64,000 bases of DNA from Octopus vulgaris (Eukaryota), in contig OX597817.1 of NCBI GenBank assembly GCA_951406725.2, positions 68,696,001-68,760,000 of the forward strand, in the 5' to 3' direction. Shown here piece after piece: positions 1 through 56,940 of this stretch (its first letter is position 1; the number at the start of each line of letters is the position of its first letter). The notes under the pieces were generated by a model. The model did no database searches, was not told where the DNA came from, and saw nothing but the letters and a program-made list of their open reading frames with translations. A program made the position numbers and the translations under genes.

Positions 1-1222
1 TCCTGATCCACAGTTTCTTCCCTAACCCTCCTCCCAGCCTGGCTTATTCCCCTGCTCTTGCCCATGCTGCTGCACTTGCCCTTACCTCTCCAACACCACT
101 ATCCTCACAAGCACCCATCATCATCCCTATCATATCACTGGCTCCTTTACATGCACTTCTAGCAATGTCATTTACTGCATCTCCTGCTCTTTCTGTCCTT
201 CTCTGTACATCTGCCAAACAGGACACCACTTGGCTGACCAGTTCATAGAACGCCTCTGAGACATTAGACTCGGTAACACCACCCCAGCTTCATGCCATTT
301 CTGGTCTACTGGTCATTCATTACAATACCTGTCTGTGTTTGGATTGTCTTTGCACAGGGGTCATCTGGACTCCTGCCTTCGCTGTGAACAGGAATTAATA
401 TTCTCTCTTTGCTCCTTTGTGCCACATGGACTCAACTCCCTTCCCTTCTTCATCTGACACCCCTCCCCTCATCATCTGACTCTCCTCCTCTCTCATCTCT
501 TCATCTCACACCTACTTCCTCTCTTCACTCCTACCCAACTCTCCTCTCCTGCCCTGACACCTACTTCCCCTCTTCACTCCTACCCATCTTCTCCCTTCAT
601 CATTACCCCTCCATCCCAACCGTACCATCCCAATACAACCCTCTCACACTACCCCTCCCACATCGTCACCCAAACCCCCAACTCACCCTTGCATCCCTAC
701 ACACTAATGCAACCATACCACACACCTGCACACCACAACATACAACACACCACACCACCCTGCACACACTAGCACTAACCACTTCCCAGCACCCACACCA
801 CATCATGACACACCAGACCAAACTACCTTGCACACCCTAGCACCGAAAACTTCCAAGCACCCATACCATCATCCATACACCTACACATGCAAACACTTAC
901 ATACTCTCACATAAACACGCATGCACACATTCCTTGCTCTCCTGTCTCATATAAACACACATACTCTCACATAAACATGCATACACACATTCCTTGCTCT
1001 CCTGTCTTACCACCTCCATCCAGCCAGCTGCCATGATTGACCACGAGCTGCTAAAGCTTTTCTTATTCTCTCTCTATTTATTTTCTCATATTCCTTTCTG
1101 TTGAAGAGTGTAGGCTCAAAATGTAAAAGACTTTCTCACCTTCCTGAGAGTTAAACTAATACACCTGTTTGTTGTTTATACACCTGTCTTCATCTTTTGT
1201 TTTTTTTTTTGTAAATTCCATC
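1..1222 (+). mobile_element. Penelope-like retroelement, 3' part (GIY-YIG endonuclease relic, C/A-rich 3' region, hammerhead-bearing tail, ends in (TA)n)
   Basis: Frame +2, 35-457, reads QPGLFPCSCPCCCTCPYL...FTCTSSNVIYCISCSFCPSLYICQTGHHLADQFIERL*DIR...HF...GHS...EQELIFSLCSFVPHGLNSLPFFI*. This is the PLE Cys linker plus GIY-YIG (VIY...YIGQT) plus terminal P.GLN motif, with one in-frame TGA at 257. The tail 1050-1222 matches 37085-37266. Confidence 0.85.
1093..1130 (+). ncRNA. Decayed minimal hammerhead motif, family A
   Basis: CCTTT CTGTTGA A GAGT-GTAG-GCTC AAAA TG TA AAAGA; a CpG-decayed version of 37130-37167. Confidence 0.55.
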
Positions 1223-14344: not shown

Positions 14345-14520
14345 AGTTCAAATTTACAGAAAAATAAAGACAAAGACAGGTGAGGGAAAACTAAGCAGGT
14401 GTATTAGTTTGACACTTGGGAAGAATGGAAAAGTTTTTGACATTTCAAGCCTAAGCACTTTGACAGAAAGGATCATGAGGAAGAAAGTAGAGAGAAAACA
14501 AAAACAATGTGTAGGGATTA
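14345..14520 (-). mobile_element. PLE family A tail, old copy with decayed hammerhead
   Basis: Reverse complement CTTT CTGTCAA A GTGC-TTAG-GCTT GAAA TG TC AAAAA, followed by the AAACTAATACACCTG...GTCTT tail, next to a short TA run. Confidence 0.65.
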
Positions 14521-16912: not shown

Positions 16913-17250
16913 AAAATCCATAAAAAAAAAGACAAAAACAGGTGGTGTAGACAACAAACAAATGTATTAGTTTAATACTCGGGAAGTAAAGAAGTCTTTA
17001 ATGTTTCGAGCCTATGCTCTTCCACAGAAAGAAACACAGAAAGGAACAAGGAGAGAAAATAAAGAATGTGTAGTGGCTAGCAACGACGGCCTTCATTCAG
17101 TTTCCATCTTTCAAATCTACTCACAAGGCTTTGATCAGCCTGATGCTATAGTAGAAGACGCTTACTTGATGTGCCATGCAGTGGGACTAAACCCAGAAAC
17201 ATGTGGTTGGGAAGTAAACTTCCTACCACACAGCCACTCCTGCACCTACA
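16645..17250 (-). mobile_element. SINE family 1 interrupted in its internal (TA)n by a PLE tail
   Basis: SINE 3' half 16645-16845, then (TA)n, insert 16910-17083, and SINE 5' half resuming ACGACGGCCTTC to about 17250. Confidence 0.85.
16995..17032 (-). ncRNA. Minimal hammerhead motif, family A
   Basis: Reverse complement TCTTT CTGTGGA A GAGC-ATAG-GCTC GAAA CA TT AAAGA. Confidence 0.65.
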
Positions 17251-22278: not shown

Positions 22279-22999
22279 CCCTACCTTCTGGTCTTGCCAA
22301 TTCCTATCAAACCGTGTCCAACTCATGCCAACACGGAAAACAGACATTAAATGATGATGATGATGATGATGATGATGATGCTCGATCTGGGTTGGTCTGT
22401 AGCTAAACCACAAAACAACAGCAGAGTTTTCTACATGGTTACTTGGCCTGTTAGATATAGTAACTATTTCTTCCTCATATCACAACCTCCCATCTGAACA
22501 TGAACAAAACAAAAGGACATATTGGACAATGTAGTCCTATAATGCACTGAATAAGATGAGATGGTCATAGCTGGAAATGCAATGATCACAGATCTGCTCG
22601 ATTAGAATTGATCTGCTAGATTAGAAATAAAGCAACAATTAACTGTAAAGGTAAAATATAAGAGATTAATGCTAACATTGCAAGAATTAAAACTCAAACC
22701 AGGGAATCACAATGTATGATGCAATAAAATAATAATAGCCTTCAGGAAAGTATCCACAGTGAGATATTAAGTTATTTAGAAATGCACAAAAGCTGCAACA
22801 ATTGCTACAGATCCCACAAATGGCCCACAAGACCAATTAGGTAATCCTCCCAGTGTGTTAAACCCAGTGCACAGGAAAAAACTGATAGATTTTAACCAGC
22901 TTTGCAACCAGCCATTCGCTGACTCAGGCAAATCTTTATGTTAATTATAATTTTAGATAAGCATTATGGATGGAATGCTTTTCATCATAAATATATTCA

Positions 23000-23412
23000 G
23001 GCACAGGAGTGGCTGTGTGGTAATTAGCTTGTTTACCAACAACATAGTTCCGGGTTCAGTCCCACTGCGTGGCACCTTGGGCAAGTGTCTTCTACTATAG
23101 CCTCGGGCCGACCAAAACCTTGCGAGTGGATTTGATAGACGGAAACTGAAAGAAGCCCATCGTATATATGTATATATATATATGCGTGTGTGTGTTTGTG
23201 TGTCTGTGTTTGTCCCCCTAGCATTGCTTGACAACCGATGCTGGTGTGTTTATGTCCCCGTTACTTAGCGGTTCGGCAAAAGAGACCGATAGAATAAGTA
23301 CTGGGCTTACAAAAGAATAAGTCCCGGGGCGAGTTGCTCGATTAAAGGTGGTGCTCCAGCATGGCCGCAGTCAAATGACTGAAACAAGTAAAAGAGTAAA
23401 AAAGAGAGAGAG
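23000..23412 (+). mobile_element. SINE family 1, full length and young (CpGs retained)
   Basis: A and B boxes, CORE-like segment, internal microsatellite, 3' CAGTC-AAAT-GACTG hairpin and GTAAAAGAG tail. Further copies at about 5140, 6122, 13150, 13694, 21592, 24813, 27418, 33335, 55813, 60268 and 63145. Confidence 0.92.
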
Positions 23413-23890: not shown

Positions 23891-24067
23891 GAAATTATGG
23901 GGAAGGGACGAGTTAATTACATTGACCCCGGTGATCAACTGGCATTTATTTTATCAATTCCAAAAAAGTGAAAGGCACAGTTGACCACAGCAGAATTTGA
24001 TCTCAGAACATAAAGATGGATGGAATGTCACTAAGCAATGCTAATGATTCTGCCAGCTCATTGTCTT
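23891..24067 (-). mobile_element. SINE family 2 with 17-bp TSD
   Basis: AACAACTGGTTGATATT at 23874-23890 and 24068-24084. Confidence 0.85.
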
Positions 24068-24770: not shown

Positions 24771-24814
<44 letters not shown>

Positions 24815-25143
24815 CAGGAGTGGCTGTGTGGTAAGAAGCTTGCTTCCTAACCACATGGTTCCGGGTTTGGTCCCACTGTGTAGCACCTTGGACAAGTGTC
24901 TTCTACTAGAGCCTTGGGCCAACCAAAGCCTTCTGTATGGATTTGGTAGACGGAAATTGAAAGAAGTGTGTTGTATATATGTGTGTGTGTGTATGTCTGT
25001 GTCTGTGTCTGCATCTGTCCCCACCACCATTGATTGACAAACGATGTTGGTGTGTTTACATCACTGTAACTTAGCGATTCAGCAAAAGAGACCAAAAGAA
25101 TAAGCAATATATATCATGCATATTTTGTGTATGCGTTGTATAA

Positions 25144-25206
<63 letters not shown>

Positions 25207-25318
25207 AGCGTAGGCTCGAAATGTAAAAGACTTTTTCTATTCCTGAGCATTATACTAATACATCTTTGTTTTGTACACCACTTGTCTTCGTCTTTTGTTT
25301 TTTTCATAAACTTACCCT

Positions 25319-36248: not shown

Positions 36249-37264
36249 ATCTTCTCTCTTCGCTCTTATACGCCATTTGGTCTCAACTCTCCCCCCCTCC
36301 TCATCTAACCCCCCTCTCCCCCTCCTCACCTATCCGTCCCCCCGACCCCTACTTCTTCAGTCCTTCATCCTTTCACCCCTACTCCCCTTCCCTTCTTCCC
36401 TCTTTCTCCCTCCCTCCTTCCCTCTTCCCCTTCCCTCTGCTCCCTCACTCCCCTTCTCTCTCCCCCTCCCCCTCCCCCTCTTTCCTCCTTCCTCCCCCTC
36501 CTCCTCCCCTTCCTTCTCCCCCTCCTCCCCTCTTCCCCCCTCTCCTTCCCCTCCCCTTCTCCCCCTCTTCTCCTCACTACACCACACGACTTTACACATC
36601 ACATCATATATGATGTGCCATACTAATACATACACCAACTAATACATACTAATACGTACTAATACATACTAATACATACACCAACCCTATACATACACAC
36701 GTCCAGACCCCTCATACGCACTTACACTCTCTCATACACACACACACACACTTATACATACTAATACGTACTAATACATACTAATACATACTAATACATA
36801 CACCAACCCCATACATACGCCTGTCCAGACCTATCCTACGCACTAATACTCTCTCATACACACACACACACACTCACACACACTTATACATACTAATACA
36901 TACTAATACATACACCAACCCTATACATACACACGTCCAGACCCCTCCTACGCACTAATAGCTGGTCATTCAACCCTATTATCAACCCTATTATCTCCCC
37001 TTATTTCGCTCTCGCGTCTCATGTTTGATCTTTGACTTCTGGCCGAAATCAGATCGCCATGTTGATTCGTTAGTTACTGCACGCATTTTTTTTCTCTCCT
37101 TCTTTCTCTGTTTTTTTTCTCTCTGTGTATCTTTCTGTTGAAGAGCGTAGGCTCGAAACGTTAAAGACTTGTTTTATTTATATTTCCTGAGTGCCATACT
37201 AATACAATTGTTTGTTTGTTTTCCACCTGCCTTCGTCTTTTGTCTATTTTCATAAAGCTTCCCG

Positions 37265-37266
<2 letters not shown>
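36249..37266 (+). mobile_element. Young 5'-truncated Penelope-like copy (family A) between TA tracts
   Basis: 36249-36308 reads IFSLRSYTPFGLNSPPLLI*, homologous to the ORF end at 398-457. It is followed by a polypyrimidine tract, (CATACTAATA)n higher-order repeats at 36620-36960, the hammerhead tail and (TA)n. CpGs are retained. Confidence 0.85.
37130..37167 (+). ncRNA. Minimal type-I hammerhead ribozyme motif, family A, best copy (U6 variant)
   Basis: Stem I TCTTT/AAAGA, core CTGTTGA plus A, stem II GAGC-GTAG-GCTC, GAAA, palindromic AACGTT in place of helix III; predicted cleavage after GUU (37162). Confidence 0.7.
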
Positions 37267-37305
<39 letters not shown>

Positions 37306-37490
37306 CTTGATGAAAGGCGAGAGATTAAAAAGACAAGCAAAACATTGAAGGATTTGGTACATTGGAATATAGAGTAAAATTTTTATTTTTATTTAAGTCC
37401 CCAATGAGAAAACAAAAGGTTTTCCCCCCACCAGTTCCAAACCTTTTATGTAACTATCACATTTTATGTGTACGAATAAAAATATATATA

Positions 37491-38070
37491 GGCACATGTG
37501 TGGCTGTCTGGTAAGAAGCTTGCTCCTGAACCACATGGTTCTGGGTTCAGTCCTACTGCATGGCACCTTGGGCAAGTGTCTTCTACTATGGGCTCTGGCT
37601 ATATATATATACACGATAGACTTCTTTCTGTTTTCATCTACCGAATCCACTCACAAGGCTTTGGTCAGCCAGAGACCATAGTAGAAGACACTTGCCCAAG
37701 ATATGTGGTGATTTGCTGTACTTGAAAAGACACAGTCAAGTTTAGTAAAATTGCTGCCTTCCACACAATCAGGCTTGTTCTTTGTGTATGTGTGTATGTG
37801 TGTGTGTGGATATATCTATGCATGTGTCTTTATATCTGTTTGTTTCTCCCCTCCACCACCGCTTGACAACCAGTGTTGGTGTGTTTACTTCCCTGTCATT
37901 TAGCAGTTTGGCAAAAGAGAACAATAGAATAAGTACCAAGCTAAAAAACAAAACAAAACAATGAAGCACTGAGGTTTATGCATTCAACTAAAATTCTTGA
38001 AGGCAGTGCCCCAACATGGTCACAGCCTAATGATTGAAGCGTGTAAAAGGTAAAAGAGAAAAGATAAAAG
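37491..38070 (+). mobile_element. SINE family 1 with internal inverted duplication
   Basis: Head + 37491-37600, inverted segment 37613-37700, tail + 37800-38070. Confidence 0.8.
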
Positions 38071-46586: not shown

Positions 46587-47110
46587 AATAAATTTTTTAA
46601 AGTACAAAAGAAACTAAAAAAGAAACCTACATATGTTTTGAATTTGGCCCCTTCGTATTTCATAATTCGACGCATTTGGGTCAAATCCAAAGTTAAGAAT
46701 TGGTTATCATTTTAAACTGCTTGCGCAGAATCTCTTCATGTTATTTTTTTTTTTGTTTTTATAAAACGAAGGTTACATCTTTCATGAAGGGATTGAAGAA
46801 ACTCAAGAAAACCTACATATGTTTCGATTCTGGCTCCTTAGTAATTCGAAGCATTTGGTCAAATCCAATGTTAAGAATTGGTTATCATTTTAATCTGCAT
46901 GAATCCCTTCAAGAAAAATGTAACCATCATTTTGTTAAAAAAAAAAAGAAAGAAACCTGAAGAGATTCTGCCTCAAGCAGTTTAAATTGAGAACCAATTC
47001 TTAACATTGGATTTGATCCAAATGCTTCCAATTAGGAATTACTAAAAGGCCAGAATTGAAATACATGTAGAGGTTTTTGAGTTTCTTTTGTACTTTTTAG
47101 AAGTTTATTA
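46587..47110. mobile_element. Tandem plus inverted ~210-bp repeat array, family C (PLE pseudo-LTR-like)
   Basis: Minus-oriented copy 46587-46794, partial tandem copy 46795-46897, plus-oriented copy 46902-47110; abuts a PLE RT fragment. Confidence 0.8.
46951..47077 (+). ncRNA. Type-I hammerhead motif with 80-nt insert in helix II, family C
   Basis: AGAAAC CTGAAGA GATTCTG [46971-47050] CAGAATT GAAA TACATG TA GAGGTTT. The sister copy 46808-46833 gives CAGAATC GAAA CATATG TA GGTTTT (palindromic ACATATGT). Confidence 0.65.
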
Positions 47111-47470
47111 GGGCAGGTGTGGGGGTGAGAGCAGATGCATGGTCCATGGAAGTGCTCTGGCAAGGGCAATGTGGATAGTGGTGAGGAGATATCCACGTAG
47201 GACGGAGTGGTGAGCAATGAGTTGAGACTGAGTGTTAAAGTCATGGTTGTCACTGCAGAGCCTGCACAGATGGAGGAATTGGGAATAAGGGATGGAGAGC
47301 TTGGTGTATTTAGGGTGGGAGGAAGAGAAGTTGAGGTATGAGTGTGAGTCTGTATGTTTGTAGTGGATGGAGGTGGTGAGATTGGAGTGATGAATGCTGA
47401 CTGAAATATCGAGAAAGGCGATGGAAAGATTTGACAAAAGAGAGGAAGGAGTCTAGTTGTTTGTGGGTGA
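47108..47470 (-). mobile_element. Penelope-like reverse transcriptase fragment (RT7/thumb)
   Basis: IAFLDISVSI...LTTSIHYKHTDSHSYLNFSSSHPKYTKLSIPYSQFLHLCRLCSD...LRGY matches the PLE FLD...YRKPT...YL..S.HP...K.SIP.SQ.LR..R.CS...RGYP pattern. Confidence 0.88.
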
Positions 47471-55526: not shown

Positions 55527-56940
55527 TTTTAAGTTGCAAAAACAGCACAAAAACAGCACAAAACTGTCTGACAAATGGGAACGTGAAACACAGAGTAGCA
55601 GTTTTTGTGAAGTTTTTGCAGCTTTAATACAAAAAGCATATTGCTCTACCTTTGGTATTCAAGTATTATTTTCCCCCCTTGTTTTGCGTTTATGTGCTAA
55701 CTCATGTATGTATGTATGTATGTATGTATGTATGCATCACCAGACATCAGTTGAGGACTCTGCCCCACAGATGAATTCAATATGGTGTGTATATGTATAT
55801 ATATATATATATAGGTATTGCTGTGCGGTAAGAAGTTTGCTTCCCAACCACACTGTTCTGGGTTCAGTTCCACTGTGTGGAATCTTGGGCAAGTGTCTTC
55901 TGCTATAGCCTTGAGTTGACCAAAGCCTTGCAAGTGGCTTTTGTGGACAAAAACTGACAGAAGTGCATCATATATATATAGATAGATCTATGTGTGTCTC
56001 TTTAAGTTTGTGTTTGTGTGCTTCCAGCCACTGCTTGACAACCAGTGTTGGTGTGTTTATGTCTCTGTAAATTAGAAGTTCAGCAAAAGATTGATGGGAT
56101 AAGTATCAGTCTTTAAAAACAGAAATAAGTACTAGGGTTGTTCATTCAACTAACAACTCTACAAGGTGGTACCCCAGCATAGCTGTAGTTTAATGACAGA
56201 AACAAGTAAAAGATTGAAGATATACGCATGTGTGTGTGTGCATATTTGTTTGTGCATACCTTTGTCTAGACATCAAGCAATGGTTGTAACCTATCCCTGT
56301 TTCAAAACAATCTGTTTCCAATATGCATCTTCATAAACAATAAAGCATTTTTAAAATCTGATGATGTGCTGTGATATCTTTAGCACTTTTCTCAGTGCGA
56401 TAGAGGACAAAGAAGGTTGAAAAATCATAGCTATAAAGGACAGTCTATTGTAGATTAAACTGGATACTCGCTAGAATAGTGAAGCATTTACTATCTCCAT
56501 CAAAGACATTGAAGATGAATCAGGGTAGGAAACAATTTTTTGTACCTGTTTGAGCAAAAAACAGATGTTATGATAGTTTATTCTTAACACAGTGGGTGCA
56601 CATTATATATGCATATGACTGCTGCTCACATAAACATGAGCGTATGCATATGTGTGTGTGTGTATATATATGTATCTATATATGTATCCATGTATGTATG
56701 TATGTATGTGTGTATGTATGTATATGTATACATGTAATTCTATGAGATGCGTGTCCAAACAAGAGTGTGTACACAATTGTGAAAATATACAGCTATAATT
56801 GTAACATTAGACATGCATATAAATATGCCAATATAAATATGTGTATGTACCCGTGTACATTCATTTGTATAGATATATCCGTATGTAATGCATAAATGTG
56901 TGTGCATGAGACACAGAAAGACAGATAGCAGGGGAGAGAG

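Follow-up and report, generated by a model that had tools for sequence, protein, structure and literature searches.

Minimal hammerhead ribozymes of Penelope-like elements (PLEs) have been described as having no activity in monomeric form and little activity as dimers (PMC4209133), and the function of hammerheads in PLEs is stated to be unclear (PMC8557442). For the PAc element of Anolis, it was reported that uncut RNA is the dominant template, that the hammerhead cuts only with the element protein and is not needed for in vitro insertion, and that templates remain functional when trimmed to +20, beyond the CUGA core, with core mutants leaving insertion unaffected (PMC11167929). In terms of sequence requirements, positions 7 and 17 are those that hammerheads leave free (PMC7151607), and pairwise mutagenesis gave low activity for all single mutants of CUGA (PMC9901934). 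A natural hammerhead with C in place of A6, that of phage Bcep176, is active, although slowly in Mg2+ (kobs <0.1 per min), and Mn2+ improves its activity (PMC3088659; PMC7151607).

Here we analyze a stretch of 64,000 nucleotides of Octopus vulgaris DNA (bases 68,696,001-68,760,000 of contig OX597817.1; hereafter the window) within its 2.8-Gb genome. The motif under study (Table 1) is a hammerhead motif in the pseudo-LTR (pLTR) of a Penelope-like retrotransposon, characterized by RT and GIY-YIG, pLTRs and TA-repeat targets, and its core reads U at position 6.

Motif copies in the window

The initial annotation had proposed a hammerhead family with a U6 core on the basis of five copies. The coordinates and cores that it gave (starting at 37135 and 1098, and at 17027 and 14466 on the minus strand) match the letters of the window, and position 17 reads U/A/U/A/C in these copies as claimed. 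All five copies are present and only four of them bear on U6, as the copy at 25204 starts at A9. Copies with cores at 1098 (G12A), 17027 (G16.2A) and 14466 (G8A, C11.1U, C15.2U) are CpG-decayed and unrepresentative, and the 38 letters of the motif under study are identical to those in both pLTRs of long-ORF elements.

Several other features of the window were observed. Part of the element 3' region (36620-36960) is a ~120-nt tandem duplication of CATACTAATA plus CA repeats, lying downstream of a long C-rich tract into which the ORF stop drifts in young family-A copies (family A being the U6-bearing elements). An RT-thumb remnant of family A (80% protein identity) is found on the minus strand at 47110-47470, the element 3' end not being nearby. 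A very abundant SINE-like repeat of ~225 nt has at least nine copies in the window, one of which lies just 3' of the motif.

Table 1. Coordinates of the hammerhead-like motif, its copies and associated features (window positions unless a locus is named)
Feature	Position	Strand	Remarks
Hammerhead-like motif, minimal type I, U6	37130..37167	+	Window sequence
Stem I (5 bp)	37130-37134/37163-37167	+	Motif 37130..37167
Core C3-A9, CTGTTGA	37135-37141; U6 = 37138, N7 = 37139	+	
Extra A after A9	37142	+	
Stem II (4 bp)	37143-37146/37151-37154	+	Loop GUAG
G12-A15.1 (GAAA)	37155-37158	+	
C15.2-G16.2-U16.1	37159-37161	+	N17 = U at 37162
Predicted scissile bond	37162/37163	+	Motif 37130..37167
5'-truncated copy of youngest family-A PLE	36249..37265	+	89% over 1,057 nt to full element (L146); order: last ORF codons, C-rich and CATACTAA-repeat 3' region, motif, 103-nt tail, (TA)n
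Older copy, core CTGTTGA from 1098	1093..1130	+	G12 to A decay
GIY-YIG remnant	17-445		Upstream of copy 1093..1130
Copy with core CTGTGGA from 17027	16995..17032	-	N17 = U; loop 2 and 16.2 CpG-decayed
Old decayed copy, core CTGTCAA from 14466	14434..14471	-	Stem II GTGC; N17 = C
Copy 5'-truncated at A9 into (TA)n	25204..25230	+	Without position 6; N17 = A
SINE-like repeat copies	22988-23212, 24799-25023, 37480-37722, 55796-56020, others		Window
Family-B U4C motifs	L331:777-814, L332:759-796		

The host element

Some motif copies are preceded by broken fragments of GIY-YIG and of an RT thumb, for which Pfam gave no match; these fragments led to long ORFs, and 20 long-ORF loci were fetched from the genome. 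The motif lies downstream of the ORF in 19 of these loci, and every one of the 28 motifs there carries U6. Eight of the 20 loci have it on both sides of the ORF, 4.36-4.57 kb apart and near the 3' end of each pLTR. Direct repeats forming the pLTRs (0.3-1.4 kb, 82-99.8% identical) were seen in all eight loci examined, and the motif within the pLTR is ~730 nt upstream of the ATG of the next ORF. A 966-aa ORF matched RVT_1 above the cut-off (E 1e-7), and GIY-YIG was detected below the cut-off (E 0.005) in one of two ORFs tested. Homologues of the ORF carry PF00078, PF26215 and PF01541, its best database relatives are PLE-type proteins (52-57% identical), and a CX4CxxC linker is located at residue 836 of the family-A ORF. 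Considering that seven family-A ORFs are mutually 99.2-99.9% identical and that pLTR identity reaches 99.8%, family A has moved very recently. Together with the existence of seven subfamilies (see below), this bears out the earlier suggestion that a natural core variant has been carried through many rounds of transposition.

In all 11 loci measured, copies end at (TA)n, 88-103 nt past N17. Among 90 flank-anchored loci, a recognisable upstream motif was absent for only 23 anchors; therefore, most cDNAs crossed the predicted scissile bond. From the first 100 of 607 rows, all in family A, 35 distinct 5' junctions were read by hand, 10 of them at most 2 nt from the scissile bond and six at one TA of loop 2, either class being explicable by (TA)n microhomology. 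RNA contigs from 4 of 22 listed runs cover this stretch and reveal neither ends nor strand. Motif pairs on opposite strands, 140-520 nt apart, were also observed (L013/L014, L124/L125 and L262/L263); such inverted 5'-truncated copies are a known PLE arrangement.

Genome-wide variation at positions 6, 7 and 17

The 16-mer comprising stem II and GAAA matches the genome exactly at 24,016 sites and its reversed control at none, so the motif cannot be attributed to chance. When the remaining core letters were held fixed over the whole genome (n = 20,091), position 6 was U in 19,249 copies (95.8%), A in 267, and C or G in 575, with C accounting for 91 of the 100 copies listed among the last group. 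As a yardstick of decay, U4 is altered in 428 of 19,677 copies genome-wide (2.2%) versus 4.2% for non-U6. This 4.2% is about half decay and half true minor variation, concentrated in one old subfamily in which non-U6 was read in 15 of 100 listed copies and decayed U4 in 21 of 332. At position 17, G was counted in 149 of 17,583 copies genome-wide (0.85%), exactly as often as an A-to-G change at the adjacent base (149/17,583), and C, with 198 copies, is near the decay level too.

We also assembled a sample independent of the core, comprising 108 copies picked by flank or ORF out of 128 (20 were dropped as truncated or having more than nine mismatches). In this sample, U6 was present in 107 copies, position 7 was A in 35, C in 14, G in 14 and U in 45, and position 17 was A in 81, U in 22, C in three and G in two. 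The extra A was found in all 108 copies, and stem II reads GAGC/GCUC. Within the part of the output covered, a tree based on ~160 aligned letters did not group A6 and C6 copies together, and the genome contains both natural A6 and natural U6 copies whose 38-mers are the same at all other positions.

Position frequencies therefore agree with the initial annotation in most respects: position 7 is free, with all four letters occurring, G is depleted at position 17 and the stems are kept. Its statement that position 6 is always U holds for the motifs at long-ORF loci and as a dominant state of ~96% genome-wide, and is not absolute. Similarly, G17, said never to occur, does exist at the decay level, without forming a lineage. 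The extra A after A9 is confirmed as a constant feature and is not novel, since it equals the published consensus of Penelope minimal hammerheads (PMC4209133), to which a palindromic helix III belongs as well. The palindrome AACGUU, through which an active dimer had been envisaged, has to be given up: this 6-mer exists only where N17 is U (22 of 108 copies), and the palindrome usable by a dimer is ACGU.

Related families in the same genome

A canonical hammerhead pattern gave 16,626 genome matches versus 175 for the control, mainly from two further families, B and C. Family B shares with family A the GAGC/GCUC stem II, a homologous flank and a 60% identical ORF, has a 3-nt loop, and is placed as the outgroup to family A in a short-alignment tree. 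One stem I pair is C-G in family A and swapped to G-C in family B. Because family B copies with U4 carry A6 in 5,511 of 5,596 cases, U6 appears, from this outgroup and the published consensus, to be a derived change in family A. With a sister family that combines A6 with the same scaffold, flank homology and related ORF, family A would descend from a canonical hammerhead.

Family-B elements with intact ORFs (949 aa) read C at position 4. Non-U letters at this position in family B gave 8,530 matches, C being present in 98 of the 100 listed, and in the youngest branch U4C is combined with a stem I mismatch of the U-U type (1,541 exact copies, among which pairs ~6.2 kb apart occur). In the CUGA turn, the sister lineages A and B have thus become fixed for different changes, and both retain C3-G8, G5, G12 and A15.1-U16.1. 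A sister family that keeps A6 and is largely fixed for U4C, with a youngest branch whose stem I is broken, is new here.

Family C is unrelated to A and shares the core and pairing, with different stem sequences. Its minimal hammerhead is canonical and abundant and has a helix II of 6 bp (L162:1495-1545 and similar loci); no ORF was linked to it in the loci examined. At L046:1430-1640, an A6 copy has family-B-like upstream sequence and the loop and downstream flank of family A, and might possibly be a recombinant or an intermediate between the families. We considered the CTGTTGAG family (L221-L224) as a second U6 family and rejected it, as GU is followed by G in its sequence, which folds into a CCACG/CGTGG hairpin. 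This repeat runs CTGTTGAG...CCACGAAACGTGG and has CTGATGA and GAAAC words upstream.

Constraint on the motif

Subfamilies were clustered by flanks alone, using 183 of 220 aligned copies (14 family B copies and 23 gapped or foreign-flanked copies were left out). The majorities of the seven subfamilies differ in two of 28 motif columns versus 35 of 88 flank columns (p = 9e-4), the flank columns including low-complexity sequence that can inflate their variability. Because many of the 183 copies had been fetched through the motif itself, the comparison was repeated with 84 copies picked by flank or ORF, and one or two of 28 motif columns versus 20-25 of 64 flank columns differed (p ~0.002-0.003). 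The two variable motif columns are N7, whose four states exceed the number in any flank column, and N17 (A/U), whereas C3-G8, G5, U6, G12, A15.1-U16.1, both stems and ACGU are kept across all seven majorities. As only these two of 28 columns vary, versus 35 of 88 in the flanks, the pattern indicates that the motif is still constrained, in a hammerhead-like manner. The absence of a G17 lineage, judged from few changes at position 17, does not reach significance by itself. Loop 2 varies as little as the core, a degree of conservation beyond what catalysis requires, and family A is without compensatory changes in stem II.

Predicted folding

The best predicted fold of the 38-mer from the window is a closed hairpin in which U4-G5-U6-U7 pair with A14-A15.1-C15.2-G16.2 (-10.2 kcal/mol; five of 200 shuffles were as good). 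In these models, the U6-A15.1 pairing probability is 0.41-0.99 in natural U6 copies and 0 in A6 copies. The double-hammerhead was also modelled for a pair of natural copies that are identical except at position 6, and was predicted to lie 12.1 (U6) versus 7.3 (A6) kcal/mol above the best dimer. Dimer energies are weak evidence either way, because the calculated gap is nearly gone when N7 is A (7.7 versus 7.3 kcal/mol) and canonical family B copies are predicted to misfold too (gaps of 13.8-18 kcal/mol). Overall, the predictions, which are made without tertiary contacts, only suggest an additional misfold due to U6. When the 146-nt 3' end was folded for long-range structure, the result did not surpass shuffled sequences (z 1.13, 0.73). 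A GAGCG word ~20 nt downstream of the motif (window 37180-37195; L331) is kept in families A and B, and the 3' strand of stem II might pair with it instead.

Class assignment and novelty

Compared with the class core C3 U4 G5 A6 N7 G8 A9, six positions fit and A6 fails (U in 19,249 of 20,091 copies). G12 A13 A14 A15.1 and U16.1 H17 are present and invariant among subfamilies, with G17 at only 0.85%. Helix II of family A opens with G10.1-C11.1 after one extra nucleotide, and helix I has 4-5 bp, (U/C)CUUU pairing with AAAGA. The palindromic 15.1-16.1 segment is ACGU in all subfamily majorities, the dimer itself being modelled. The location in both pLTRs of a PLE and the single ORF with RT and C-terminal GIY-YIG are also as expected. 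The motif is thus predicted to be a variant of the minimal PLE hammerhead, agreeing with it in every tested feature but A6. An alternative register, U3-U4-G5-A6-A7-G8-A9 (37138-37144), was rejected since no helix II can form in it, and the register is set by family B. Rfam covariance models yielded no hammerhead among the four matches in 37100-37200 (E up to 10), nor among 150 listed of 334 matches in a scan of the window letters.

Lunse et al. 2017 is said to be a survey of PLE-associated hammerhead variants. It lies, as does supplement file 1 of PMC4209133, outside our literature search, in which natural A6C, U3-A8 and U4C turned up and neither a natural A6U nor an octopus hammerhead study was found. 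The portions covered of PMC6765202, PMC6155905, PMC544870 and bioRxiv 10.64898/2026.07.22.740005 likewise contain no A6U. The novelty of natural A6U is provisional, as either Lunse 2017 or that supplement could list the variant.

Interpretation

We consider the chances evenly balanced that the motif is a hammerhead in the pLTR of a recently transposing PLE that, with a lineage-fixed A6U, likely folds, cuts slowly, and probably needs a partner copy and the element protein. The template of cDNA synthesis would have to be uncut, or religated, at the predicted scissile bond. Since such a template is required and RT, starting ~100 nt downstream, must cross the site, a slower ribozyme might be tolerated or even favoured. 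Published mutants suggest that U6 would lower activity via lost A6 contacts, and the modelled U6-A15.1 pairing into the closed hairpin may lower it as well, so that an already weak ribozyme would be weakened further. Residual cleavage might free unit-length RNA from tandem read-through transcripts, and residual protein- or dimer-assisted cutting could keep catalytic residues under selection. By analogy, the slow natural A6C hammerhead provides a possible precedent for attenuation (PMC3088659, PMC7151607), and the Anolis PLE hammerhead, needing the element protein to cut and being dispensable for in vitro insertion, is consistent with it (PMC11167929). Against attenuation, A6U may be effectively dead, given the low activity of single CUGA mutants and the weakness of minimal PLE hammerheads already as dimers. 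Moreover, the spread of the youngest family-B branch with U4C and a broken stem I suggests that cleavage is dispensable in this clade.

The low activity of CUGA mutants (PMC9901934) and the broken stem I would also suit a dead hammerhead-derived scaffold, namely a closed hairpin with a GA-rich internal loop that is bound by the ORF protein or a host factor near the RT start; we find this a serious competitor and yet lean against it. Independent fixation of CUGA-turn changes in two sister lineages (A6U; U4C), the invariance of loop 2 and the predicted U4-G5-U6/ACG helix point the same way, and N7 and N17 would be unconstrained in a closed hairpin too. However, C3 and U16.1 are unpaired in that hairpin and yet never change among subfamilies (two sites that are not significant alone), stem I is intact throughout family A, and target-primed reverse transcription of the Anolis PLE works without the 5' half of the hammerhead (PMC11167929). 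The earlier proposal that the motif was repurposed as an RT-recognition structure is likewise unsupported by that element, the one PLE studied in vitro, which belongs to a different PLE clade (PMC11167929).

We regard as doubtful the idea of selection for PLE hammerheads that are off by default, in which U6 would latch the palindrome into the closed hairpin, the sister lineage would do likewise via U4C, and the ORF protein or Mn2+ would open it. The result would be a gated ribozyme timing RNA processing after RT passage, and classes outside CUGANGA would be missed by descriptors. It also seems unlikely that the motif serves a DNA-level or overlapping role (a pLTR promoter element, or an endonuclease or second-strand signal) with its hammerhead resemblance as ancestral baggage. 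The location in the pLTR, ~730 nt upstream of the next ORF's ATG, would fit such a role, as would the invariance of the whole sequence including loop 2 and the lack of compensatory stem II changes in family A. However, the free positions are exactly N7 and N17 only, the unrelated family C shares the core and pairing and not the stem sequences, and stem I has a C-G to G-C swap between families A and B. Full compensation of U6 (by loop 2, the downstream GAGCG repeat, protein or Mn2+), with in vivo activity equal to that of A6 relatives, is very improbable: near-normal rates of A6C hammerheads in Mn2+ (PMC7151607) and the invariance of U6 itself over seven subfamily majorities would agree with it, whereas no compensating change was found, A6 and U6 copies identical elsewhere coexist, and position 6 is more variable than U4 in the old subfamily (15/100 listed versus 21/332).

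Implications and comparison with known systems

Four states occur side by side in recently active related elements of this genome (canonical A6, A6U fixed, U4C fixed, and U4C combined with a broken stem I), thousands of copies representing each of them, and form a natural series. This series and the A6/U6 pairs identical elsewhere make it directly testable whether PLEs need RNA cutting. If U6 cleaves, the known tolerance of the hammerhead core widens; if it does not, this would be a clear case of a ribozyme scaffold outliving its catalysis. In addition, a CUGANGA descriptor misses 19,249 + 8,530 motifs here versus 16,626 found by a comparable canonical pattern, and PLEs called hammerhead-less may therefore be false negatives.

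With regard to domain features alone, the host element resembles Neptune/Nematis EN+ PLEs (PMC8557442) in its single RT ORF, CX2-5CxxC linker (here CX4CxxC), C-terminal GIY-YIG, pLTRs and (TA)n insertion; unlike here, canonical hammerheads are described there. The Anolis Poseidon PLE (PAc; Frangieh et al. 2024, PMC11167929) also has a hammerhead upstream of the RT start, at ~85-92 nt (from +26, +111-118) versus 88-103 nt to the copy end here, and is reported to conserve C3 and G8. It differs in being without a reported position-6 change, in belonging to the Poseidon clade and in the overlap of its motif with the ORF start, and its cleavage has been demonstrated, whereas the family A motif is known here from sequence. 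Among natural core variants, the Bcep176 A6C hammerhead (PMC3088659; PMC7151607) shares a change at position 6, to C rather than U, and is a single phage motif with normal helices, in contrast to ~19,000 dimer-type copies without a stable helix III here. A U4C viroid hammerhead (cited in PMC3088659) likewise has a CUGA-turn change with lower in vitro activity that persists in nature, matching family B; its position differs from U6, and it belongs to a viroid rather than a retrotransposon. The closest likeness in structure is to the minimal hammerheads of Cervera and De la Pena 2014 (PMC4209133), which are also found in both pLTRs, with a short helix I, an extra nucleotide between 9 and 10.1, G10.1-C11.1, GAAA, a palindromic 15.2-16.2 without a loop, and UH, and mostly occur as solo truncated copies. 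However, their consensus as published is CUGANGAH, with U3-A8 as the reported core variant, and their helix II has 7-8 bp, whereas the octopus family A has U6 in ~96% of copies and a helix II of 4 bp.
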